From: an uncultured Acidimicrobiia bacterium
Lineage (GTDB): Bacteria > Actinomycetota > Acidimicrobiia > Spongiisociales > UBA11373
DNA length: 35,422 nucleotides
Assembly (NCBI GenBank): GCA_964440905.1
Contig: CAYTTU010000246.1
Coordinates: 1 to 35,422, forward strand
Direction: 5' to 3'
The position numbers and the translations under genes are program-made. The notes beneath the pieces are model-generated. The model saw only the letters and a program-made list of their open reading frames with translations, ran no database searches and was not told the DNA's origin. Positions 1,367 to 35,385 of the stretch are shown in pieces. The first letter of the stretch is position 1; the number at the start of each line of letters is the position of its first letter.

Positions 1367-1635
1367 GGACGCCGCTCCACCGCGTCCACGATGCCCACGA
1401 TGGCGTGGTCCACGGGCACGAATGGCTCCGGCATCGCCAGTGCTGCCTCCCGGCTGCCCACGACGTACACCAGCTCTCCGGGTCCGGCCATCGCCACTGC
1501 GTCGGCGGCCACCACCGGCCGGCCCTTGGGGCGGCGCTCCCGGTCGAGCGGCTGCACGATGAGGAAACGGACCCCCTCGAGCCCGGGGTATTTCACCGTG
1601 GCGACGACGGTCCCGATCACCTCACCCAGCTGCAT
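1363..1635 (-). CDS. BMC vertex pentamer protein (BMC-P), paralogue 2
   Basis: Internal ATG at 1635 gives 90 aa beginning MQLGEVIGTVVATV. The longer 145-aa ORF has an Arg/Trp-rich, non-protein-like extension that overlaps the upstream gene. Confidence 0.9.
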   Translation of the reverse strand: MQLGEVIGTVVATVKYPGLEGVRFLIVQPLDRERRPKGRPVVAADAVAMAGPGELVYVVGSREAALAMPEPFVPVDHAIVGIVDAVERRP

Positions 1636-2221
1636 CGAATCCCTCCCAACCGACGCGGGTGCCAAAGCGAAATCCGTCGAACAGGTTCCCGCCCATCTCG
1701 GCGTGCAGCTGCGGAATGACCACCGATCCGGCGAGCAGCGCCGGAGGCACCCGTTCCAGACCGATCGCCACCGCCGCCTCCACGTCGGACACGGTGCCAC
1801 AGAACAAGGCGTACGCCTTTCCTCCGAGGCCGTCGGCCAGGTGCAACTCGGCGAGCACCACGGTGGCCCCCTTCACCGCGGCGTCGGCTGCGGCGATGGT
1901 GGCGGCCACCGTCACGGTCTCGATCACTCCGACCGCTTCTCCATCAGGGGGGAACCGTTCACCGCGCACCGCCCCCGCGACCGCGGGATGCACGTCAGGC
2001 AGCAGCACCCGATCGACCAGCGCGGACCCGGACCGGTCGATACCTGCGGCGACCGCCTCTTCGACCGCGGCGACGTCGCCGACGACCATCACCAGGTACT
2101 TGCCGGGGTGGACCGTGCCGCCGAGGATCTCGGCCACCGGCCCCCGCTTGATCATTGCGTCGCCCGCAGCGATGCCGGCCGCGATCGAGGAGAACTCGAG
2201 GATGGCGAGAGCGGGATGCAT
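1622..2221 (-). CDS. tandem-domain BMC shell protein, PduT-like (single-layer BMC-T)
   Basis: ATG at 2221 gives 199 aa beginning MHPALAILEFSSIAAGIAAGDAMIKRG. A second BMC domain begins AVGVIETVTVAATIAAADAAVKG. The protein appears colinear with Salmonella PduT, recalled from memory. The start lies 2 nt after the aldehyde dehydrogenase stop. Confidence 0.85.
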   Translation of the reverse strand: MHPALAILEFSSIAAGIAAGDAMIKRGPVAEILGGTVHPGKYLVMVVGDVAAVEEAVAAGIDRSGSALVDRVLLPDVHPAVAGAVRGERFPPDGEAVGVIETVTVAATIAAADAAVKGATVVLAELHLADGLGGKAYALFCGTVSDVEAAVAIGLERVPPALLAGSVVIPQLHAEMGGNLFDGFRFGTRVGWEGFDAAG

Positions 2222-2222
2222 C

Positions 2223-3674
2223 TCAGACGATCCTGAGGGCGCCGACCACGGCAATACGACGTTCCCGGGTGAAGGTCAGCGGCCGGGTCATGCCGTCGCC
2301 GGAGGGGCTGGCGATGGAAAAGGAGGTGAATCCCTCGCCGCCCTGGCCGAGTCCGGCGTAGTTGGGGCCGTTGGCGATGAAGATCGACACATTGATCGAG
2401 CGCGCCATGCGGGTGATGGTCCCCACGTCGTTGGAGTGGATCGAGGCGGTGTGTCGGAACTGATGCTCGCTGCGAATCGCAAGGTCGATGGCAGCATCGA
2501 CATCGGGTACCACGGTCACCGGCATCACCGGCATCATCTGTTCGGTCCACACCAGGTTGTGGTCGTTGGGCACCACCGCCACCAGAAGACGGGGATCGCC
2601 GTCCACGTCCACCCCGGCGGCGGCGGCGATATCCCGGGCGTTCTTGCCCACCCAGGCCCTATTGATCACACCGGGCTTTCCGGGCGGGCCCATCGTCTCA
2701 AAGATCACTCGCTCCACTTTGCGCAGCTCGTGCTCTTTGAGCACATGGGCGCCATGCCGGGCCATCGCCCTGACCAGTTCGTCGGCCACCGGGCGGACGA
2801 CGATGGTGGTCTTCTCGTCGGTGCAGATCAAGTTGTTGTCGAACGACGCCCCGGCGACGATGTCGCGGGCGGCACGGTCGATGTCGGCGGTCTCATCCAC
2901 CACGGCTGGCGGGTTGCCGGGACCGGCGGTGATCGCCCTCTTGTCGGTCTTGAGCGCCTCGCGTACCACTGCCGGTCCTCCGGTCACCAACAGCACCCGC
3001 ACCTTGGGATGGTGCATCAGCTCCTGGGCGCTCTGGATGGTCGGCTCGGGAACCCCGGTGACGAGATCCGGCGGCCCCCCGGCGGCAAGGATCGCCCGGT
3101 TGAGCAGGCGGATGTTCTCCGCCGATACCCGCCGCGCCCCGGGGTGGGCATTGAACACCACCGCATTGCCGCCGCTGAGAATGGCGATGGTGTTGTTGAT
3201 GAGCGTGGCGGTGGGGTTGGTGGTGGGGGTTATCGACCCGATCACCCCGAACGGAGCGTGCTCGGTGAGCATCATGCCGCCGTCACCGGTTTCGATCAGG
3301 GGTTCGAGATCTTCTGGCCCCGGAGTGCGCGTGGCCACCAGGATGTTCTTGCGAACCTTGTCCTCGGGGCGGCCCAGGCCGGTCTCCTCGTGGGCCATCT
3401 TTGCCAGGTGCTCGGCGGAGGCGAGCATGGCGTTGCGGATCGAGGCCACGACCGCCCCCCGGATCCCGGTGCCGAGGGCGGTATAGCGGTCGTAGGCACG
3501 TTCGGCGGCGTCGACGGCCTCATTGACGGTGGCATACATCCCCTCCCCCAGGGAGGCCTCCGGCACCTCGACCGGCACCCGGGGATGGGCCGGGGCGGCG
3601 TCGGCGGTGCCGCCAAGGCGCGCTCGCACCCGGGCGATGATCTCCTGGACCTCGCGCTCCGAGGGCGTCTTCAT
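2223..3674 (-). CDS. CoA-acylating aldehyde dehydrogenase (PduP/EutE-like) with N-terminal encapsulation-peptide-like helix
   Basis: 483 aa. Core resembles the EutE/PduP family ([45 protein letters not shown]). The N-terminal segment [16 protein letters not shown] is followed by a Pro/Ala-rich linker. Confidence 0.9.
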
Positions 3675-3978: not shown

Positions 3979-4281
3979 TCAGGCCGACTCGGCCGCGGCC
4001 TCGTCGGCGCGACCGAGGGGCAGGACCAGGTCGATGTTGACGTGGGGACGGGCGATGACGTGCGTCGACACCACTTCGCCGACCTTCTCGGCGCCGCGAA
4101 TGCCGGCATCGATGGCGGCCTTCACCGCGGCGACGTCACCGCGAACGATCGCGGTTACGTAGCCGCCGCCGGTCTTCTCGTATGAGACGAGCTCCACCTT
4201 GGCGGCCTTCACCATCGCATCCGCTGCCTCCACCATCGCCGCGAACCCGCGGCACTCGATCATTCCCAGTGCTTCAGCCAT
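3979..4281 (-). CDS. BMC hexamer shell protein (BMC-H, PduA/EutM-like)
   Basis: 100 aa: [32 protein letters not shown]...[19 protein letters not shown]. This is a canonical single BMC domain. Confidence 0.92.
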
Positions 4282-4329: not shown

Positions 4330-4956
4330 TCACGAAATGTCTCTGCCGGCCAGTCCCTCAAGGGCGGCGACGGCGGCGCGCCAGCCGACGTCGATGTCGC
4401 GCTCCTCGCCCCCGAGATAGACCCGCCCCAGCGATCCGAAGGATCGCACCTCGAGAACGTTTATGTTGGCCGCCTTCTCCGCCTCGTTGGCCGCCAGAGC
4501 GGCGTAACACGCCGGCTCCATCTCCAGCAGGTACAGCGTCTGGCCGGGGATGATCATCTGGCCGTGGCGCATCCGGTTGATCAACTGCGCCTGGTGGTCG
4601 TCGATGCGCCGGATGATCTGGCTCGAGGCGATGCGGGGCTTGAAGCGGTCCGTCTCGGTGGCTCCGATTTCGGCGAGGATCGCTGCCCCCGCCGCCCGGG
4701 TCTCCGCCTGCGAGGGCGAGTGGACCTCGAGCAGACCGAAGTAGCGCTCGACTATCTGCATGCCCGGCTTCACCGTGGTGGCCTTGAGGGCGACATCGGT
4801 GAGCCGGTTGATCTCGATACCCGGGGAGATCTCGACGTAGAGCGAGGCATCTCCGGCGAGTGGCAGGAAGCCCTGGGCCACCGTGCCGAGGAATGCGGCG
4901 TACTGCGGTTGGAGGCTGTCGAGGAACGAGTAGCCCCGAAGATCAATACCTGCCAC
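4330..4956 (-). CDS. tandem permuted BMC shell protein (BMC-T, CsoS1D/CcmP/HO-T2-like double-stacking type)
   Basis: 208 aa with a GTG start at 4956 preceded by GGGAGG. It contains [20 protein letters not shown]...[32 protein letters not shown] and [15 protein letters not shown]. These resemble the Haliangium BMC-T2/T3 and CsoS1D class, recalled from memory. Confidence 0.8.
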
Positions 4957-5800
4957 TCGAAGTACCTCCCGTCACGATCTGGACCCCGGCTGAAGCCCCG
5001 ATACGGGTGGCCCCGGCCGCGATCATCTGTTTGGCGTCCTCGACACTACGGATTCCCCCGGAGGCCTTCACCCCGATCTTCGGGCCGACTGCCTCCCGCA
5101 TCAACGCCACGTCGTACACCGTGGCCCCTCCCGGGCCGAACCCGGTGGAGGTCTTCACGAAGTCCGCCTTGGCCTCGACCGCGATCTGGGAAGCGATCAC
5201 CTTCTCCTCGTCACTCAGCAGCGCGGTCTCGAGAATCACCTTGCACAATGCCCCCGCTTCGCGGCACGCCTCGCTGACCCCGGCGATGTCTTGACGGACC
5301 GTGTCGAAGAGCCCGGACTTGAGGGCTCCAACGTTGATCACCATGTCGATCTCCCGGGCTCCGTCCCGTAGGGCGCGCCGGGCCTCCATCGCCTTGATCT
5401 CAGGGGTGGACGCCCCGAGGGGGAATCCGACGACACAGCATGCCACCACCGGCGTGCCCTTGAGGGCCTCGGCGACCCGCTTCGCCCAGGTGGGGTTCAC
5501 GCACACCGACGCAAACCCGTACTCGATCGCCTCGGAGCACATTCGGTCGATCTCCGCGGCGGTGGCTTCGGGTTTGAGCATGGTGTGATCGATGAACCCG
5601 GCGAGATCCGTGGGCACATCGGCGCCGGCCCCGTTGTAGGTGACCCGGGTCGCCCCGGCGGCGAGCACCGACCGCACCTTGGGGGCCGAGTGGGCGACGC
5701 AGTCCCCAAGGCAGGTGAGGCACTCGTCCCAGGCTTCACCAGCGAGGGAGGCCAGGACCTCCCGGGTGATCGCTTCGATGAGGTCGTCGCGCTCGGTCAT
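4943..5800 (-). CDS. deoC: deoxyribose-phosphate aldolase (DERA) with N-terminal extension
   Basis: ATG at 5800 overlaps the rpiB stop (ATGA) and gives 285 aa. The DERA core includes [34 protein letters not shown] and DFVKTSTGF. About 70 extra N-terminal residues include the helix [17 protein letters not shown] and a CX2CX3C motif. Confidence 0.9.
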
Positions 5801-6363
5801 GCCGACACCTGGAGCCGAGGTCCGTCCAGGGCGTCGATCTTGGCGACCCGCCGAGCGTGGCGTCCCTCGCCCCACGGGGTCTCCAGCCAGGCGGTGACGA
5901 TCTCCCAGGCCAGGTTCTCCCCGATCAACCCCGCACCCAGGGTCAGGACGTTGGCGTGGTTGTGCTCCCGGGAATTGCGCGCCGACGAGACGTCGTAGCA
6001 CAGGGCCGCCCGGACTCCGACCACCTTGTTGGCCGCCATCGCCGAGCCGATCCCGGCGCCGTCGACCACGATCCCGGCAATGCAGGCGCCACTGGCCACC
6101 TGCAGGGCCACCGCGACCGCAAAGTCCGGGTAGTCGACGGGGTCTGCCGAGTCGGTCCCGCAATCGACTACAGCGTGCCCTGCCTCGCGCAACCGGAATG
6201 CGAGCCGTTCCTTGAGGCGGTAACCGCCATGATCTGCACCAATGGCGATGGCCCCCGAAGGTGCCGCCACCGGGGTCACCAGGGGTGGCGCCTGCGGGGA
6301 GGGACTGGCGACCGCATCGACGACCCGGGCGACGAGTTGGCGCACCTCGGTCTCGCTGGGCAT
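5797..6363 (-). CDS. rpiB: ribose-5-phosphate isomerase B (RpiB/LacAB family) with N-terminal extension
   Basis: ATG at 6363 gives 188 aa. The core includes [37 protein letters not shown] and [15 protein letters not shown]. The N-terminal segment [18 protein letters not shown] is followed by a Pro-rich linker. Confidence 0.9.
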
Positions 6364-6384
6364 GTCTCGGCGCACCACCAGGCG

Positions 6385-6390
6385 ATTATC
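6385..6390 (-). promoter_or_regulatory. candidate -10 element (GATAAT on minus strand) for the BMC operon
   Basis: This is the only A/T-rich hexamer between the rpiB ATG (6363) and the heptamer arrays, and lies 22 nt upstream of the ATG. No convincing -35 element was seen. The -35 region would fall inside the first TCGGGCG units. Confidence 0.25.
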
Positions 6391-6404
6391 CCACGGCGGA
6401 CCGT

Positions 6405-6581
6405 CGCCCGACGCCCGATGCCCGATACCCGACTCCCGACGCCCGACGCCCGACGCCCGAGCCAGACCCAGAACCCGAGCCAGAACCCGAACCCGCGCCA
6501 GAACACGGGGCATTCGGGATCGGGTATCGGGAGTCGGAAGTCGGGAGTCGGGGTTCGGACTCGCCCCTCGCCCCTCGCCCC
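6405..6581. repeat. inverted heptamer arrays: 8 x NNCCCGA (6405-6460), CCAGAACCCGA-type spacer, about 7 x TCGGGNN (6513-6559), then 3 x TCGCCCC (6561-6581)
   Basis: Read directly from the sequence. The left and right arms are imperfect reverse complements with a 5/7 invariant core per unit. The minus strand of the left arm reads (GGGN4)8. Confidence 0.85.
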
Positions 6582-6587
6582 TAGATT
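6582..6587 (+). promoter_or_regulatory. candidate -10 element (TAGATT) for a leaderless HTH-gene transcript
   Basis: A TANNNT hexamer lies 7 nt upstream of the in-frame GTG at 6595, with no Shine-Dalgarno sequence between them. This pattern is typical of leaderless actinobacterial mRNAs. Confidence 0.3.
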
Positions 6588-6594
6588 TCGCCCC

Positions 6595-7173
6595 GTGGAC
6601 CCCGCCTTCACCTGGGACCAACCCAAGCCCAAGACTCCTCGGGCGCCACGCGACCCCGCCGCCGCGGCCCTCCCCCCAACCGGAGAGCGCATCACCTTGC
6701 GCGAGGCGGAGCATCGCTTCGGAGTGCCTGTGGCCACACTGCGCACCTGGGCCCGCAAAGGTGCGGTCGATGCCGTGATGACCGCCGACCAGGGTCAGCG
6801 GCAGTGGGTGGTGACCCCCGAGTCGGTGGCCCACCATCTCTCCCGGGCCGCCAAGACTGTGCCGCGACCCGGTCGAAAAGCTGCCACGAAAGGCAAGCCG
6901 ACGGGGCGGCGGGCCACCGGGCCCACCGGCGACGGGACTGCGATGCTGGTGCCCCGCGACGCCTGGGACCGCCTGATCGACCAGTTGGGGAACCTGCACG
7001 AAACGGGGCTGATGCTCGCCGAGGCACGGGAGCGCGCCGCCCGGGCCGAAACCGAGGCGGGCTTTCTGCGCGAGCGGCTCGCTGAGATCCGGACGGAGCG
7101 CGATGGGCTGCGGGCCGGCACCAGCGATGTCCCGCCAACACCGCGACGGTGGCGGAGGCTCTTCGGACGATGA
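6595..7173 (+). CDS. HTH (excisionase/MerR-like, HTH_17-type) DNA-binding protein with C-terminal coiled coil
   Basis: Only the last part of the 438-aa ORF looks protein-like. ITLREAEHRFGVPVATLRTWARKGAVDA is a helix-turn-helix segment. The C-terminal part ARERAARAETEAGFLRERLAEIRTERDGL is coiled-coil-like. The GTG at 6595 is the first plausible start, so the start is uncertain. Confidence 0.6.
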   Translation: MDPAFTWDQPKPKTPRAPRDPAAAALPPTGERITLREAEHRFGVPVATLRTWARKGAVDAVMTADQGQRQWVVTPESVAHHLSRAAKTVPRPGRKAATKGKPTGRRATGPTGDGTAMLVPRDAWDRLIDQLGNLHETGLMLAEARERAARAETEAGFLRERLAEIRTERDGLRAGTSDVPPTPRRWRRLFGR

Positions 7174-10677: not shown

Positions 10678-10680
10678 GAG

Positions 10681-10708
10681 ATCTCAGATCTCAGGTGTCA
10701 GATCTCAG
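10681..10708. repeat. tandem heptamer array: ATCTCAG ATCTCAG GTGTCAG ATCTCAG
   Basis: Read directly from the sequence. The array begins 4 nt after the permease stop codon. Confidence 0.85.
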
Positions 10709-10792: not shown

Positions 10793-11413
10793 ATGGACCT
10801 GGAGTTTCTCAAGGAGATGGGCGAGTCGCTCAAGGGGACCAACATCGACTCGGTGGAGGAGTTCGAGCAGGCGCTCGTCGATCGCGTGAAATACCTGCGG
10901 CTCTCGGTGTCCGATCTCGACATCCAATACGACAAGGGCGTCGCCACCGTGATGGGCATGGTTCCGGATCAGGCGACCAAGGAGAAGATCATCCTCGCCG
11001 TCGGAAACGTCAAGGGTGTGGCCAAGGTGAAGGACAGCCTGGCCGTCGGCCTCACCGCCTCCCAGAAGGCCGAGTTGCGCAAGCGAGCCGCGGTTCGGGC
11101 CGGCTCCAAGTCGGCGGCGGCCGCTGCCGCCGCCGCCAAGGCCGCCGAAAAGGCCCGTAAGGAGGCCAAGGCCAAGTTCGAGCTCGAGGTGCGCCGCGCC
11201 GCCTTCAAGAAGGAACTGTCCGCCCGGGCCAAGGACGGGGCCAAGGCCTCGGTCACCTACACCGTGAAGAAGGGCGACAGCCTCAGCAAGATCGCCAAGA
11301 AGCTCTACGGCGACTCCTCGAAGTGGAAGGCGATCTTCGAGGCCAACCAGCCGCTCATCAAGAAGGCCGACCTGATCTACCCCGGCCAGGTGCTGCGGAT
11401 TCCGAAGATCTAG
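10793..11413 (+). CDS. BON-domain plus LysM-domain protein (Kbp/YgaU-like) with Ala/Lys-rich linker
   Basis: ATG at 10793 is preceded by AGGAGAAGGAG. 206 aa. The BON-like part contains GVATVMGMVPDQATKEKIILAVGNVKGVAKVKDSL. The C-terminal LysM domain contains YTVKKGDSLSKIAKKLYGDSSKWKAIFEANQPLIKKADLIYPGQVLRIP. Confidence 0.85.
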   Translation: MDLEFLKEMGESLKGTNIDSVEEFEQALVDRVKYLRLSVSDLDIQYDKGVATVMGMVPDQATKEKIILAVGNVKGVAKVKDSLAVGLTASQKAELRKRAAVRAGSKSAAAAAAAAKAAEKARKEAKAKFELEVRRAAFKKELSARAKDGAKASVTYTVKKGDSLSKIAKKLYGDSSKWKAIFEANQPLIKKADLIYPGQVLRIPKI

Positions 11414-11434
11414 ATCTCAGGTCTCAGATCTCAG
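11407..11434. repeat. tandem heptamer array: GATCTAG ATCTCAG GTCTCAG ATCTCAG
   Basis: Read directly from the sequence. The first unit contains the TAG stop of the BON-LysM gene. The unit is the same as in the array at 10681-10708. Confidence 0.85.
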
Positions 11435-11440
11435 CGAATC

Positions 11441-11470
11441 GGTTGCGGAGGGCTCGGGCCCTCCGCAACC
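11441..11470 (+). terminator. perfect 13-bp GC-rich hairpin (GGTTGCGGAGGGC-TCGG-GCCCTCCGCAACC)
   Basis: Perfect stem read directly from the sequence. It sits between the BON-LysM stop and the murJ start. There is no clear U-tract, which is common in high-GC actinobacteria. It is nested between inverted heptamer arrays. Confidence 0.5.
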
Positions 11471-11490
11471 TCGTCGAGGCTCTTGAAAGA

Positions 11491-11525
11491 CCTGAGATCT
11501 GACATCTGACATCTGAGATCGAAGA
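11491..11525. repeat. tandem heptamer array: CCTGAGA TCTGACA TCTGACA TCTGAGA TCGAAGA (inverted relative to 11407-11434)
   Basis: Read directly from the sequence. It is the reverse complement of the (A/G)TCTCAG unit. Confidence 0.85.
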
Positions 11526-14011: not shown

Positions 14012-15153
14012 GGGCCCGGGTGGCGTCCCCGTGGCGTCGGCTACCCTCCCCGACCGTGATCCGACGCCTCGCATTCCTCGTGAGTCTGTCCCTGGTGGCT
14101 GCGGCGTGTGGTGGGGACGCCGCCCCCACCACCACGACGACCGCCACCACCACGACGACCACCAGCACCACCACGACGTCGACGACCACGACGACCGTCG
14201 CCGTCACCACCACGACAGTCGCCACCGGACCGACGGTCACCACGCTGCCCGAGGGTTTCCGCTCTCCCATCAATGGCCTCCACCCCGAGTTGGAAACGCT
14301 GCTCGATCGCCGGGGAATCGCGGTCAAGGTGGACAATCACCCCGAGGCGCGCCCCCAGTCGGGAATCCAGCACGCCGACGGGATGATCGAGCTCCTGGTC
14401 GAAGGCGGATTCACCCGGTTCATCGCCCTTTTCCACGACAACGACACCGACTACATCGGGCCGATCCGTTCCGTCCGCCCCACCGACTCGACGCTCATCC
14501 CCTGGCTGGACGTTCCTTTCGCCTATTCGGGTGGGCAGCCCTGGGTGCGCGACCTCTTCGCCAGCCGGTCGATCCGCCTGATCGGTGAAGGGGCCAACGG
14601 GATGTTCCGCATCTCCAGCCGGACGGCTCCACAGAACCTCTACGGCGACACCAACGCTTTTCGCACCGTGTCGGATCAGCGCGGCTATCACAACGACCCA
14701 CCGAACTGGCTTTACGAGGTCGGGCTTTGGGACTTCCCCGAGGAACCCGCCACCGAGATCACAATCCAGTGGTCCTCCAACTCCTTGGTGCGGTGGGTGT
14801 ACGAGGATGGGAAGTACCTGCGGTTCAACGGCAGTTCCCCTCACCGGTGGCGGGCAGAGGACAGATCCGAGGGCCAGGTGTCCGCAGATGTCCTCGTCAC
14901 CCTCACCGGGCACGCCTATACCGCCAGGCCGCCCTCCGGAGTGAGCGGAACCCCGGTGCCTGCCACGGAGACGGTCGGATCGGGCAAGGCGCGCGTGTTC
15001 GCCTACGGACTGGTCTGGGAGGGAACCTGGGAGCGCGGCGGGATCAACGAGCCCTTCCGTCTGTTCTCCGCCGATGGCTCCGTCGCCGTGGTTCCACCGG
15101 GCGTCCCCTGGGTCTCGATCCTCCCCGACATCGCCACCCTCACCTACGAGTGA
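14008..15153 (+). CDS. DUF3048 (YerB-like) lipoprotein with poly-Thr linker
   Basis: GTG at 14008 overlaps the sodX stop (GTGA). An alternative GTG at 14056 gives VIRRLAFLVSLSLVAAAC, a signal peptide with lipobox. AVKVDNHPEARPQSGIQHADGMIELLVEGGFTRFIALF matches my recollection of DUF3048. Confidence 0.75.
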   Translation: MRARVASPWRRLPSPTVIRRLAFLVSLSLVAAACGGDAAPTTTTTATTTTTTSTTTTSTTTTTVAVTTTTVATGPTVTTLPEGFRSPINGLHPELETLLDRRGIAVKVDNHPEARPQSGIQHADGMIELLVEGGFTRFIALFHDNDTDYIGPIRSVRPTDSTLIPWLDVPFAYSGGQPWVRDLFASRSIRLIGEGANGMFRISSRTAPQNLYGDTNAFRTVSDQRGYHNDPPNWLYEVGLWDFPEEPATEITIQWSSNSLVRWVYEDGKYLRFNGSSPHRWRAEDRSEGQVSADVLVTLTGHAYTARPPSGVSGTPVPATETVGSGKARVFAYGLVWEGTWERGGINEPFRLFSADGSVAVVPPGVPWVSILPDIATLTYE

Positions 15154-18491: not shown

Positions 18492-19534
18492 CCACAGAAG
18501 CCCGCTACACCCGCGCCGACTTCCAGACGGACCAGGAGGTTCGGTGGTGCCCCGGGTGCGGCGATTACACGATCCTCGCCTCGGTGCAGAGTTTCATGGC
18601 CGAGATGGGGGTGGACAAGGAGAAGATCGTCTTCGTGTCGGGGATCGGGTGTGCCTCGCGGTTCCCCTACTACATGAATACCTATGGGCTTCACGCCATC
18701 CACGGCCGCGCCCCCGCAATCGCCTCGGGGCTGGCGGTGGCTCGCCCCGAGCTGTCGGTGTGGGTGGTCGCCGGCGACGGCGACGCCATGTCCATCGGCG
18801 GAAACCATCTGATCCACGCGCTGCGCCGCAACATCAATCTCAAGATCCTGGTGTTCAACAACCAGATCTATGGCCTCACCAAGGGCCAGTACTCCCCCAC
18901 CTCCGAAGTGGGAAAGCGCACCAAGTCGAGTCCCTTGGGCTCGATCGACTTTCCGTTCAACCCGGTGAGCCTGGCACTAGGAGCAGAGGCGACCTTCGTT
19001 GCCCGCACCGTGGACATGGACCGGGCGCACACCACCGAGATCCTCAAGCAGGCCCATGCCCACCGCGGTACCGCTTTCGTGGAGATCTATCAGAACTGCA
19101 ACGTGTTCAACGACAAGGCGTTCATCGCACTCACCGGCAAGGAGGTGCGGGACCACAACCGCATCAATCTGGTCCACGGCGAAAAGGTCCTGTTCGGGCC
19201 GGAGCGGGAGCGCGGGGTCATCATCGAGGGTGGGACGGCCCGCATCGTCGACGTCGCCGAGGTTGGGCTCGATGCCATCCACACCCACGATGCCACCGCC
19301 GCCAGCGCCGGTCCGGCGTACGCCCTGAGCCGCCTCAGTCACGGCCCGGTCGGCCCCACCCCGGTCGGAGTGTTCCGTTCCGTCGATCGCCCGGTGTACG
19401 AGGAGACCCTGCAGCAGCAGATCCACGATGCCCAGGCCAAGCGCGGCCCTGGCGACCTCGCTGCCCTGATCGCCTCCGCCGGCACCTGGACGGTCGAGGC
19501 CGGTGGCGAGCCCGAGCTGCCCAGTCATAGCTAG
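18488..19534 (+). CDS. korB: 2-oxoglutarate/2-oxoacid:ferredoxin oxidoreductase, beta subunit
   Basis: ATG at 18488 overlaps the korA stop (ATGA). 348 aa with WCPGCGDY and the TPP-binding segment GDGDAMSIGGNHLIHALRRN. Confidence 0.9.
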   Translation: MTTEARYTRADFQTDQEVRWCPGCGDYTILASVQSFMAEMGVDKEKIVFVSGIGCASRFPYYMNTYGLHAIHGRAPAIASGLAVARPELSVWVVAGDGDAMSIGGNHLIHALRRNINLKILVFNNQIYGLTKGQYSPTSEVGKRTKSSPLGSIDFPFNPVSLALGAEATFVARTVDMDRAHTTEILKQAHAHRGTAFVEIYQNCNVFNDKAFIALTGKEVRDHNRINLVHGEKVLFGPERERGVIIEGGTARIVDVAEVGLDAIHTHDATAASAGPAYALSRLSHGPVGPTPVGVFRSVDRPVYEETLQQQIHDAQAKRGPGDLAALIASAGTWTVEAGGEPELPSHS

Positions 19535-19564
19535 GAAGCTGACAGCTGACAGCTAGAGACTGAG
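19529..19564. repeat. tandem heptamer array: AGCTAGG(A) AGCTGAC AGCTGAC AGCTAGA GACTGAG
   Basis: Read directly from the sequence. The first unit contains the korB TAG stop. Confidence 0.8.
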
Positions 19565-19720: not shown

Positions 19721-20397
19721 TGTTCGCCGTCTCGGTGGCCACCAGTGTGCTCGCCGCATTGTTCGCCACCGATCTGCTGCGGCGCTGGGTGCGGCGCCGC
19801 GAGCGGCGCCACCTGCTGTGGTGGGGGGCCGGTGTGGTCGCCTACGGGTTGGGGACGCTGGCGGCGGCCGTCGTCGAGCGGTCCGGGTGGACCCCGGGCT
19901 GGTTCCGCACCTGGTACGTCGCCGGGGCGATCCTGGGTGGGGCGCTGCTCGCCACCGGAACGGCGCACCTGCTGCATCGTCCTGCAACGGCGAGCCGTAT
20001 CGGGCAGTCGGTGATCGTTCTCGCCGTCGGAGCCACCGCGGCCCTCGCCCTCGCTCCGATCGCCCCGCTGCCCTCGGGTGATCTCGCCGGGGACTCGATC
20101 GCCTGGGGATGGGTGCGCGCCTTTACTCCGGTGCTCAACACCTATGCCGTGGTGTACCTGGTGGGCGGTGCGGTGCGATCGGCAATGCGCCACACCGACC
20201 GCCGCCGAGTCGCCGGAAACGTGTTGATCGCCCTGGGCGGCCTCACCCCCGCCTTCGGAGGTGTGGCCTCCCGCCTCGGTGGTGCCGATGCCTTGCCCCC
20301 CACCCTGCTGGCCGGGCTGGTGCTGATCTGGACGGGAGCGGTGCTGGCGGGCGGGCAGAAGGTACGAACGCAGGAGGATCGGGGCTCGGGGCTATGA
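19720..20397 (+). CDS. hypothetical multi-pass membrane protein
   Basis: Internal ATG at 19720 gives 225 aa beginning MFAVSVATSVLAALFATDLL, with about 6 hydrophobic helices. No family recognised. Confidence 0.6.
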   Translation: MFAVSVATSVLAALFATDLLRRWVRRRERRHLLWWGAGVVAYGLGTLAAAVVERSGWTPGWFRTWYVAGAILGGALLATGTAHLLHRPATASRIGQSVIVLAVGATAALALAPIAPLPSGDLAGDSIAWGWVRAFTPVLNTYAVVYLVGGAVRSAMRHTDRRRVAGNVLIALGGLTPAFGGVASRLGGADALPPTLLAGLVLIWTGAVLAGGQKVRTQEDRGSGL

Positions 20398-20418
20398 ACG
20401 ATGAGCGACGAGCGATGA
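20391..20418. repeat. tandem heptamer array: GCTATGA ACGATGA GCGACGA GCGATGA
   Basis: Read directly from the sequence. The first unit contains the TGA stop of the membrane protein gene. Confidence 0.8.
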
Positions 20419-20439
20419 GACCGGAGAGCTGGATCGGCT

Positions 20440-20467
20440 TCGCCCATCGCCCATCGCCCATCGCCGC
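20440..20467. repeat. tandem heptamer array: 3 x TCGCCCA + TCGCCGC
   Basis: Read directly from the sequence. Confidence 0.85.
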
Positions 20468-20475
20468 ACCCTCAA

Positions 20476-20517
20476 GGCCAATAGCCAATAGCCAATAGCC
20501 AATAGCCAATAGCGGAG
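20476..20517. repeat. tandem heptamer array: GGCCAAT + 4 x AGCCAAT + AGCGGAG
   Basis: Read directly from the sequence. It ends 20 nt before the convergent methyltransferase stop. Confidence 0.9.
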
Positions 20518-20536
20518 GCCACCGCAGGCGGCCGAC

Positions 20537-25554: not shown

Positions 25555-25582
25555 CTGGGCACTAAGCACTAGGCACTAGGCG
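25555..25582. repeat. tandem heptamer array: CTGGGCA CTAAGCA CTAGGCA CTAGGCG
   Basis: Read directly from the sequence. It starts 2 nt after the lipoprotein stop. Confidence 0.85.
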
Positions 25583-25595
25583 GTATCGTGGCGAA

Positions 25596-26036
25596 ATGGT
25601 CGAGCTCGATGCTGGGTCTGATGCCGATCTCCCCGCTATCCGCGAACTGCTCGACGAGTCCAGCCTTCCGCTCGATGGCTTGATGGCGGTCCCGACGCGG
25701 TGGGTCGTGGCCCGAGATCGAGGCCGCTTGGTCGGCGCCGGGGCGCTCGAGGCCCATGGGAATCACTCACTGCTCCGTTCGCTGGTGGTGGCACCCGACG
25801 TCAGGACGCTTGGAGTCGGATCGGGGATAGTCGGCGAGCTGGAGCGCATCGCCGCGGATCGTGGTTCGGGTGGCATCTACTTGCTCACCGACACGGCGGA
25901 AGGTTTCTTCAAGCGTCGCGGCTACGTGCGGATCGACCGCGATGCGGCACCGGATGCGGTTCGACGGTCGGAGGAGTGGGCGGTGACGTGCTCTGCTTCG
26001 GCGACTCCGATGGTGCGGGCCGACCAGGTCATCTAG
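25596..26036 (+). CDS. GNAT-family N-acetyltransferase (ArsN2/ArgA-like short form)
   Basis: 146 aa. LLRSLVVAPDVRTLGVGSGIV...IYLLTDTAEGFFKRRGY is an acetyl-CoA-binding GNAT core. The C-terminal CSASATPM resembles ArsN2-type proteins. Confidence 0.78.
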   Translation: MVELDAGSDADLPAIRELLDESSLPLDGLMAVPTRWVVARDRGRLVGAGALEAHGNHSLLRSLVVAPDVRTLGVGSGIVGELERIAADRGSGGIYLLTDTAEGFFKRRGYVRIDRDAAPDAVRRSEEWAVTCSASATPMVRADQVI

Positions 26037-26461
26037 AACCCCCGGGCGAACTGCTCCACCCTGCGTGGGAGGCCCTGCTCGATCGATGCCGAGATGCGGC
26101 TCCAGAACATCCCGGCGAGGAAACCCCGCGGCTTGGCTTCGAGACTCACGTCGATGACAGTTCCGCCCGGATCGGGTCGCATCCCCACGGTAAGAGTGCC
26201 CTCGATCTCTGACGACTTCAGCCCGAGTGCGAGGGTGGCGCCCGGTCGGGACTCGACGACCCGGGCGGTTCCGCGATGCCGGCTCCCTCCGACGGCTGCG
26301 GTCCAGTCGAAACCGATCAGGCGATCACCGTGGCTCTGCTCATTGGAGACCGTGTCCATGACCCCGAGGCCAAGCCATGTCTCAGCCCTCTGCAAGCGCA
26401 CCCAAACGGTCATCGGATCAGCAGCGGTCAGGGCGGAGTGGCGAAACGCTGCGGGGGCCAT
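26033..26461 (-). CDS. SRPBCC-superfamily (START/polyketide cyclase-like) protein
   Basis: 142 aa. The size and beta-rich pattern, with a C-terminal helix, are typical of SRPBCC. It is convergent with the GNAT gene and overlaps it by 4 nt. Confidence 0.65.
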   Translation of the reverse strand: MAPAAFRHSALTAADPMTVWVRLQRAETWLGLGVMDTVSNEQSHGDRLIGFDWTAAVGGSRHRGTARVVESRPGATLALGLKSSEIEGTLTVGMRPDPGGTVIDVSLEAKPRGFLAGMFWSRISASIEQGLPRRVEQFARGF

Positions 26462-26467
26462 GCCGGA

Positions 26468-26502
26468 AACCTAGTGCCAAGTGCCTAGTGCTTAGTGCCT
26501 AC
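26468..26502. repeat. tandem heptamer array: AACCTAG TGCCAAG TGCCTAG TGCTTAG TGCCTAC (inverted relative to 25555-25582)
   Basis: Read directly from the sequence. Positions 26482-26499 are the exact reverse complement of 25558-25575 (18 nt). The last unit contains the atpC stop. Confidence 0.85.
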
Positions 26503-34827: not shown

Positions 34828-35385
34828 TCAGATTGCGGGACGCGCCGCGGCGATGCGGTCCCCCGCCATCAGCGCCGGGAACGGGAGGAAAGGCGCCGCC
34901 ACCAGCGCCGTCAACGGGGAGAGCACGTAGAGCAACAAGGTGATGAGCGCGGTGAGGCTCACCGCCAGAATGCGGGGGGCCGGGCGGCTCGGCGGGTCAC
35001 TCCGCAGCACGAAAGCCCCGGCGACACCGAAGGCGAGCACGAGTGACGAGGTGGGCTCCTTTATGAGCGTGCCGATGGCGATGTAGCCGCTCACCGCCAG
35101 GGGACTTGCCAGCAGCACCCGGCGGAAGGCCTGCGGGGTGCGCGACACCCGGGCGAGGATGGTGAATGCGACCGGAATCAGCACCACCGCCACCGCCACC
35201 GCGAGTCGCTCCATCGCCACCGCCTCCGGGTCACCCGGGTCGCCCTCATTCACCGCGACGGCCACCGCGCTGGCCACCGCGCTGGCCACCGCGCCGAACG
35301 AAAGTACCAACACCAGGGTGGCGACCAGCACTGCCGCCCACAGGCGGCGCCGCGTCGGAGGCGCCACGGCCGGCGGCTCACCCAA
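34828..35385 (-). CDS. hypothetical membrane protein
   Basis: 185-aa hydrophobic ORF with an apparent TTG start. No family recognised and the start is uncertain. Confidence 0.45.
   Translation of the reverse strand: MGEPPAVAPPTRRRLWAAVLVATLVLVLSFGAVASAVASAVAVAVNEGDPGDPEAVAMERLAVAVAVVLIPVAFTILARVSRTPQAFRRVLLASPLAVSGYIAIGTLIKEPTSSLVLAFGVAGAFVLRSDPPSRPAPRILAVSLTALITLLLYVLSPLTALVAAPFLPFPALMAGDRIAAARPAI

Follow-up and report, generated by a model that had tools for sequence, protein, structure and literature searches.

The window analysed here is a stretch of 35,422 nucleotides (G+C about 68%), positions 1 to 35,422 of contig CAYTTU010000246.1 (GenBank assembly GCA_964440905.1) of an uncultured Acidimicrobiia bacterium. 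The source genome itself is sampled only as these ~35 kb, and its relatives supply the wider comparison. The minus strand carries a bacterial microcompartment (BMC) locus of the sugar-phosphate-utilisation (SPU) type, whose first gene, rpiB, is divergent from a gene coding for a helix-turn-helix (HTH) protein. The 231-bp spacer between these two genes (6364-6594) contains the arrays of tandem heptamers that we discuss here. The gene identities given by an earlier reading of the sequence alone (RpiB, HTH and BMC), as well as the length of the spacer, were upheld, and the DeoC and aldehyde dehydrogenase genes are confirmed. From left to right the spacer and its flanking genes are organised as follows:

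5797-6363, minus strand: rpiB, first gene of the operon (Pfam LacAB_rpiB, 1.3e-51, residues 39-176)
6385-6390, minus strand: GATAAT, -10-like element of the BMC operon (the plus strand reads ATTATC), inside the conserved block GGCGATTATCCCACG
6405-6460: left array, eight NNCCCGA heptamers with CCCGA invariant (direct reading and Tandem Repeats Finder, TRF)
6456-6512: central core, repeats based on the hexamers CCAGAA/CCCGAG/CCCGAA, period 6/12/18; loop region of a possible hairpin
6514-6560: right array, about seven TCGGGNN units, the unit being the reverse complement of that of the left array
6561-6581: mini-array of three TCGCCCC units adjoining the HTH -10-like element (TRF)
6582-6587, plus strand: TAGATT, -10-like element of the HTH gene, 7 nt before the GTG start
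6595-7173, plus strand: HTH gene, 192 aa, GTG start at 6595; MerR/excisionase-like winged HTH with a long C-terminal helix

Direct reading and TRF bear out the repeat anatomy first described, i.e. eight NNCCCGA, about seven TCGGGNN and three TCGCCCC units with a complementary 5/7 core, the right array lying at 6514-6560. The left array reads, in order, CGCCCGA CGCCCGA TGCCCGA TACCCGA CTCCCGA CGCCCGA CGCCCGA CGCCCGA; on the minus strand this is (GGGNNTC)8, with GGGCGTC in 5/8 units and GGGCATC, GGGTATC and GGGAGTC in the others. TRF places it at 6401-6460 (period 7, 8.6 copies, score 85), and the core at 6456-6504 (period 18, 2.7 copies, 90% matches). The units of the right array—TCGGGA TCGGGTA TCGGGAG TCGGAAG TCGGGAG TCGGGGT TCGGAC—include one 6-mer and two with GGA for GGG (TRF: 6514-6552, period 7, 5.8 copies); the mini-array is perfect (6560-6582, period 7, 3.3 copies, 100% matches). 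The pattern CCCGANNCCCGANNCCCGA has 12 matches, against 0.6 expected, and every one of them falls within the repeats of this spacer.

The left and right arrays form inverted arms, 73% complementary over 51 nt (6408-6458/6508-6558) and 80% over 45 nt (6422-6466/6514-6558), and this complementarity comes mostly from the invariant 5/7 core. Neither the variable dinucleotides nor the variant units are mirrored in order between the arms, which therefore do not represent a simple inverted duplication. The idea that the left arm was truly duplicated in inverse was thus rejected, 73-80% being about what the invariant core alone yields. Two other identities of the repeats were discarded. A protein-coding reading (open reading frames, ORFs, 6261-6584 and 6242-6778) does not hold, since a reading frame is not preserved over repeats of 7 nt and since these ORFs cross both divergent gene starts. 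A known structured RNA was ruled out since no Rfam family matched the window at gathering score; a permissive Rfam search of 6250-6700 returned sub-threshold miRNA-hairpin matches only, and the tRNA search found none.

We compared this spacer with its orthologues. A genome scan with the HTH family alignment gave 80 loci, almost all from Acidimicrobiia; with further contigs from exact-protein look-ups and one metagenome DNA match, i.e. the single related contig found by scanning with the conserved left flank, the comparison set comprises 87 loci. The record titles of L005, L019, L031, L033, L036, L039 and L068 name Kiloniellaceae, Kiloniellales, Acidobacteriota or Gemmatimonadales despite an Acidimicrobiia-type locus; these odd labels of metagenome-assembled genomes (MAGs) are probably binning or taxonomy errors in public records. 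The divergent rpiB/HTH arrangement is present in 67/87 loci, so that the link of the HTH gene with the BMC locus is a real one and the gene a good candidate for a regulator.

The heptamers themselves turn over at this site. Three tandem CCCGA units were found in no orthologous spacer among the 87 loci. The spacer of L001 (HTH 77% identical) has a CCCGACGCCC remnant, (GCTGAGA)3 and (TCGCCCC)2; that of L002 (82%) has (CTGTCAG)2(CTCACAG)2, then three TCGCCCC-type units, the contig stopping within the array. L084 shows the CCCGACGCCC remnant followed by at least seven TAGCCYC units, an array evidently grown from the TCGCCCC-TAG junction and in which the contig also stops; L085 has (TCGCCCC)2. L087 (72%) displays a different set, (GGTACCG)3, (CAGACAC)5, (GGAGGCC)2 and (CTGACCA)5, while L003 and L086 (about 70-74%) have no arrays, and the spacers of the distant L014, L074, L082, L035 and L004 carry still other heptamers. 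TCGCCCC units, in 2-3 copies, are kept in the closest relatives only (L001, L002, L084 and L085); L087 has a single CCCTCGTCC at the position of the mini-array, and in L014 (TCGCCCC)2 stands, in the same orientation, beside the rpiB -10-like element. The CCCGA/TCGGG arrays are therefore missing from close orthologues (HTH 72-82% identical) or survive there only as the CCCGACGCCC remnant, so that orthologous loci largely lack such repeats, the outcome which the sequence-only reading had named as speaking against its own proposal. In close relatives, contigs break off within heptamer arrays or beside them (L002 1-29, L084 1140-1197, L085 1-57). Since such repeats break short-read metagenome assemblies, the copy numbers in assembled contigs, the window included, may be unreliable.

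By contrast with the repeats, the two -10-like elements are conserved, and they are the only conserved parts of the spacer across orthologous loci, which supports the two candidate -10 hexamers proposed earlier. The block GGCGATTATCCCACG is kept in L001, L003, L004, L005, L006, L008, L084, L086 and L087; in more distant orthologues TAGGAT, within CATCCTAGGA, stands at the position of GATAAT. On the other side a TANNNT hexamer (TAGATT, TAACCT, TAGGCT or TATGAT) lies 6-8 nt ahead of the HTH start in most orthologues, a minority (e.g. L003 and L086) having instead a Shine-Dalgarno GGAGGAG between TAACCT and the start. A consensus scan of 6300-6660 for promoters and terminators found no sigma-70-type pair and no intrinsic terminator, so that the -10 assignments are made from conservation only. 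Leaderless transcripts are frequent in actinobacteria, where such promoters are -10-driven, often without recognisable -35, and where a -10 element so close to the start codon signals a leaderless mRNA. With TAGATT 7 nt before the GTG, the HTH mRNA would start in this leaderless way.

The spacer is also larger than usual. The conserved protein anchors on either side of it lie 442 bp apart, where 67 orthologues have a median of 331 bp and a range of 284-586, and the other orthologues with a long spacer mostly carry arrays too. The -10-like elements are 191 bp apart in the window, against ~25-60 bp in most Acidimicrobiia whose spacers were read. The distance between the putative back-to-back promoters, GATAAT for rpiB-deoC-BMC-aldDH and TAGATT for HTH, thus exceeds that of typical relatives by about 110 bp, and the -35/upstream regions of both now consist of repeat DNA.

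Arrays of this kind are not restricted to the spacer, TRF showing them at sites all over the window. An autocorrelation scan of the window found 12 period-7 arrays, against 0.35 in dinucleotide shuffles, and 0 at periods 8-11; the related Acidimicrobiia loci, 1.18 Mb in all, hold 88 arrays of period 7, 3 of period 8 and none of periods 10 or 11. Their density is patchy among lineages, from 0 to ~8 per 10 kb, and their sequences are diverse: the 93 arrays surveyed represent more than 60 canonical heptamers, of which the most frequent is found three times, and the window holds many units unrelated to CCCGA (AGATCTC, CTGACAT, GCCAATA, TCGCCCA, ATGAGCG, GGCACTA and others). With 8.9 copies in this survey, the left array of the spacer is the second longest of the 93. 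The arrays have a G+C content of 60%, against 66% for the genomes. All those of the window are intergenic or at gene boundaries, i.e. between ORFs with a coding-type G+C content at third codon positions (GC3) or abutting stop codons, and several begin at a stop codon or at most 2 nt from one. Two quick GC3-based gene finders, covering 50-65% of the window, served solely to fix reliable gene 3' ends, not for intergenic statistics. The other arrays of the window include:

1084-1114: GCCGTCA/GCTGTCA array, intergenic
10679-10708: AGATCTC array right after a stop codon
11406-11434 and 11488-11516: inverted AGATCTC and CTGAGAT-CTGACAT arrays around a GC-rich hairpin, downstream of the BON-LysM gene
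19534-19554: AGCTGAC array right after a stop codon
20379-20513: four heptamer arrays (TCGGGGC x2, ATGAGCG x3.7, TCGCCCA x3.7, GCCAATA x5.3) in a 135-bp gap between convergent genes
25555-25581: GGCACTA array, left member of an inverted pair flanking two genes
26470-26498: CCTAGTG array, inverted copy of 25555-25581, with the variant unit AAGCACT common to both

A stop triplet is present on either strand in 41% of the heptamer units (93 arrays, all loci), against 27% for random heptamers of the same composition; since the period is 7, an array whose unit holds a stop triplet has stops in all three frames. The window has two further tandem repeats, CCACCACCACGACGACCG (period 18, ~4-5 copies, 14126-14223) and CACCGCGCTGGC (period 12, 3.7 copies, 35251-35294), whose triplet-compatible periods suggest coding repeats.

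Neighbouring arrays are often related to each other: among 51 pairs lying within 1 kb, 9 are reverse-complementary and 5 have the same unit, when about 2% of each is expected randomly. Inverted pairs are found downstream of genes and between convergent genes as well, so that an inverted architecture like that of the rpiB/HTH spacer is no special mark of promoters. At 11405-11520, downstream of the BON-LysM gene, where the AGATCTC units include the TAG stop codon and the hairpin is a perfect one of 13 bp, the RNA fold reaches -64.2 kcal/mol (z -7.0) and is like an extended terminator; arrays follow this gene in L003, L004, L007 and L087 too, in most cases with other units. The convergent-gene region (20375-20520) gives a minus-strand RNA fold with z -4.1, and its ATGAGCG and TCGCCCA units are near reverse complements. 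The inverted GGCACTA pair flanks a block of 890 bp, just upstream of the ATP synthase epsilon gene, made of a GNAT-like acetyltransferase gene (25596-26036, plus strand) and a gene of 142 aa (26033-26461, minus strand). The block might represent a cassette, either inserted or invertible; the GGCACTA unit recurs in L007 at another locus, downstream of LysM.

Period-7 specificity, diversity of units, intergenic location, turnover at the orthologous site, conserved -10-like flanks and a larger spacer are thus the observed features. We consider it likely, with good confidence, that the arrays of the rpiB/HTH spacer are a cluster of hypervariable heptanucleotide simple-sequence repeats (SSRs), the local case of a class present in intergenic DNA throughout this Acidimicrobiia lineage. 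They have what defines intergenic heptanucleotide long SSRs: at least three tandem 7-nt units, an excess of period 7, a non-coding position in the window and a rapid turnover among close relatives. As to their origin, short local seeds would have been amplified in 7-bp steps by replication slippage, one seed perhaps being CCCGAC beside the BMC -10 element and the other CCCTCGCCCC beside the HTH -10 element; the complementary arrays flanking a pre-existing dyad would then have been kept alike by quasi-palindrome template switching.

Heptamers are, according to later accounts of a genome survey, an over-represented class of long SSRs in many bacteria, with Actinobacteria among the richest, and polymerase slippage was proposed for them (Mrázek, Guo and Shah 2007, via PMC4679880, PMC4692102). 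As here, period 7 stands out among non-triplet periods in these accounts and the repeats are intergenic; to judge from its date, that survey did not cover Acidimicrobiia MAGs. The GGGNATC or GGGGA(C/T)T repeats of Xanthomonas and Nostoc, the best-studied case of the class, are also intergenic and sometimes inverted, form G-quadruplexes (G4) in vitro, vary between close relatives at the same position and have no function known (Rehm et al. 2015, PMC4692102). They share with our arrays the tandem 7-nt units with a G3 run, the intergenic inverted pairs able to form stem-loops and the formal G4 motif, which here is known from sequence alone. GGGCATC and GGGTATC fit GGGNATC, but GGGCGTC (5/8 left units) and GGGAGTC do not, the unit of the window being GGGNNTC, which comes close to that type. 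Furthermore, one unit family dominates in those genomes, against dozens of unrelated heptamers here with G-rich ones a minority (17%); and those repeats favour four units and are under-represented where ORFs diverge, whereas the left array has eight units and lies between divergent genes. The tandem heptamers of Calothrix and Nostoc known as STRR (short tandemly repeated repetitive sequences) and the TAACTGA repeats of marine Beggiatoaceae are likewise intergenic, near gene starts or ends; however, these are few fixed heptamers used genome-wide, which suggests a sequence-specific binder or mobility, while our units are diverse and locus-specific (PMC4679880). None of CCCCAGT, TTGGTCA, CAACAGT and TAACTGA is among the units of the 93 arrays.

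Some novelty seems to lie in the lineage, in how many different units share one period, in how often pairs are inverted, and in arrays persisting at a position while their sequence changes. To our knowledge neither the frequent inversion between neighbouring arrays nor this persistence of position under turnover of the unit has been described before. This combination suggests a process specific for the period, not for the sequence.

The region was first seen as a structured or multi-site operator specific to the BMC/HTH promoters. This is unsupported: the heptamers differ or vanish in orthologues, and arrays of the same kind occur at many other intergenic sites, including some where no promoter is expected. 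The operator hypothesis would have a Xis/BldC-like winged HTH polymerise on the heptamers, or on the three TCGCCCC units lying between its own -35 and -10, to co-regulate the BMC operon and itself. For the HTH protein, 1124 homologues were found, those bearing names all from Acidimicrobiia MAGs. HTH_17 is matched by 33/34 family members, the window's own protein scoring 19.6 bits against a cut-off of 27, and a PDB sequence search with the family profile gave no informative match. The AlphaFold (AF2) model (mean predicted local confidence, pLDDT, 76) shows a winged HTH (residues 33-85) that a disordered linker joins to a long helix (121-176). With Foldseek, the winged HTH is most similar to Xis of mycobacteriophage Pukovnik (4j2n) and to BldC of Streptomyces (6amk, 6ama), with target-normalised template-modelling (TM) scores of 0.63-0.70 and weak E-values of 0.02-0.08, none reaching 0.001.

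This resemblance provides the strongest argument for the operator, because BldC binds variable numbers of 9-bp AATT-containing direct repeats in head-to-tail arrangement (PMC5859096), and here too a small MerR-like winged HTH is encoded beside a direct-repeat array of variable number. The gene pair is syntenic in 67/87 loci, the 2-3 TCGCCCC units that abut the -10 element are kept in the closest clade, and L014 has its (TCGCCCC)2 beside the rpiB -10-like element. On the other hand, the recognition helix (L49, R50, W52, A53, R54) is nearly invariant in the family while the heptamers change or are missing in orthologues, so that the repeats are not a conserved sequence-specific operator. Their 7-bp period is shorter than the 9 bp covered per BldC protomer, and the units are GC-rich with no AATT minor-groove element or other AT-rich motif (PMC5859096). 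Unlike BldC/Xis operators, moreover, the arrays are not conserved along with the regulator, and the protein has an extra long C-terminal helix, which in the model suggests a MerR-like dimer on a dyad; the identical repeat architecture is also found at sites unrelated to promoters. A classical MerR operator, a dyad in a -35/-10 spacer of 19-20 bp, is not recognised either, the HTH promoter having three direct TCGCCCC with no dyad and no -35/-10 pair. Nor do the repeats resemble promoters of SARP (Streptomyces antibiotic regulatory proteins), whose heptamers are 11 bp apart, on one helix face and overlapping -35, since our units are contiguous at 7 bp; no SARP gene is among the identified neighbouring genes.

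We therefore hold binding of the HTH protein to the repeats for very unlikely. The arrays would not be a sequence-specific operator and would lack a dedicated binding protein; if any repeat were nevertheless an operator, the only candidate would be the TCGCCCC units that adjoin the -10 element. Beside rpiB, distant Acidimicrobiia (e.g. L037, L073, L028) keep CATCCTAGGA, with its perfect palindrome TCCTAGGA, almost unchanged. As this conservation exceeds the needs of a -10 hexamer, CATCCTAGGA makes a better operator candidate for the conserved HTH protein than any of the repeats.

The structural potential noticed earlier deserves the same scrutiny. The G4 motif described on the left arm's minus strand is formally present, as (G3N4)8 with eight G-tracts at 6407-6458 in the sequence motif scan, and a 4-tract motif lies on the plus strand at 6507-6531. 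The hairpin potential is genuine, yet modest: the predicted DNA fold of 6395-6590 is -50.2 kcal/mol (z -2.8) for the plus strand and -54.9 kcal/mol (z -2.6) for the minus strand. A switch based on such non-B DNA would be in line with these motifs, with the 73-80% complementarity of the arms, and with reports that related GGGAATC repeats form G4 in vitro and that G4s in E. coli promoters change expression (PMC4692102). However, G4 motifs are not enriched in the window (7 versus 8.0 +/- 2.6 in shuffles), and orthologous spacers lack the motif. A G3/C3 run occurs in only 17% of the heptamer arrays of the lineage, below the 33% of random heptamers of equal composition, so that the G4 potential is incidental to the CCCGA unit and no property of the array class. 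Pairing of the arms depends mainly on the 5/7 core and includes many mismatches, and extrusion would be costly in duplex DNA of 69% GC. A non-B DNA switch is thus a highly improbable explanation of the arrays.

Still further from the data is the view that the repeats are an assembly artefact or a dispersed mobile element inserted between the two genes, such as a MITE (miniature inverted-repeat transposable element) or a REP-like (repetitive extragenic palindromic) element. Short-read assemblers do mishandle tandem repeats, and three related contigs stop at arrays; but arrays are found in many independent MAGs of different projects, with variant units interspersed. Inverted arms around a core do resemble a MITE; but REP, BIME (bacterial interspersed mosaic elements) and MITE exist as many dispersed copies of the same palindromic element, and no second copy of the arms or core was found in the window or the 87 loci, save an unrelated site in L057. 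The cores of the other inverted pairs are unrelated, and there is no Rfam or tRNA match. We give almost no credit to this explanation.

A more serious competitor is selection for a module that works whatever its sequence. The arrays would then be a tunable spacer, an insulator or a contingency locus, the copy number varying the spacing, phasing or topological coupling of the promoters and hence, within a population, the expression of the BMC. At least 10 lineages have arrays in this spacer, built of different units, the number of TCGCCCC copies is 2 or 3 among relatives, and L084 has a new expansion at the -10 junction; the relatives' contigs that end inside arrays would fit length heterogeneity, but also simple assembly failure. 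From what the sources consulted describe of promoter SSR contingency loci in Haemophilus and Moraxella, these similarly have a tandem repeat in the promoter region, whose copy number could alter expression; by contrast, they usually have 1-5-nt units and demonstrated switching in host-adapted pathogens, while the repeats studied here are part of a genome-wide class (PMC12721329, PMC4679880). Array-rich lineages, however, carry arrays in many spacers, so that recurrence at this one may reflect density alone; many orthologues manage with a compact, repeat-free spacer; and the comparable Xanthomonas and Nostoc repeats showed no regulatory role (PMC4692102). Such a selected module seems to us unlikely, though worth keeping in mind.

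Several points nevertheless weigh against the interpretation of the arrays as plain hypervariable SSRs. Their origin by slippage and template switching is reconstructed, and the transcription start sites are predicted from conservation only. The recurrence of arrays with different units at the same spacer in several lineages, and also in the LysM 3' region of five relatives, could reflect a selected function that depends on position and not on sequence; the enrichment of inverted pairing hints that structure is selected. The length of the left array, second of 93, is unusual, and the regulator has the Xis/BldC-like fold, whose known members bind tandem direct repeats (PMC5859096). If the arrays affect expression at all, the effect would be indirect and sequence-independent, through promoter spacing, uncoupling, copy-number change or non-B DNA.

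The remaining genes of the operon, all on the minus strand downstream of rpiB, are:

4943-5752, minus strand: DeoC gene
4330-4956, minus strand: CsoS1D-like tandem BMC protein gene
3979-4281, minus strand: BMC-H protein gene
2223-3674, minus strand: aldehyde dehydrogenase gene
1622-2254, minus strand: BMC-domain protein gene

The gene order DeoC, BMC, aldehyde dehydrogenase is kept in the orthologous loci. The start of DeoC may lie upstream of the edge of its Pfam domain. RpiB, for which an exact-protein look-up returned no record, has an N-terminal extension of ~38 residues ahead of its Pfam domain, followed by a proline/alanine-rich linker. From its sequence this extension looks like a microcompartment encapsulation peptide, and fits the one reported for the ribose-5-phosphate isomerase (RPI) of SPU microcompartments (PMC11585597).

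For the Acidimicrobiia SPU operon, these data suggest that the likely control elements are the two conserved -10-proximal blocks together with the conserved divergent Xis/MerR-like gene, not the repeats, of which a tempting but wrong annotation is thereby removed. A practical consequence is that metagenome assemblies are broken by the arrays precisely at promoter and terminator regions. More generally, intergenic repeats that are specific in period, diverse in sequence, often inverted and turning over at fixed positions bear on why heptamers dominate long bacterial SSRs. Tentatively, and as a possibility we would not favour at present, a mechanism specific for period 7 and indifferent to sequence might, in some Acidimicrobiia, make or keep arrays at gene boundaries as structural modules: the inverted pairs at 3' ends would extend terminator-like hairpins, and the arrays of the present spacer would form a copy-number-tunable spacer uncoupling the BMC operon from the regulator gene. 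If this were true, the lineage, with its dozens of unrelated units at one period, would be a natural system to test why long bacterial SSRs favour 7 bp.

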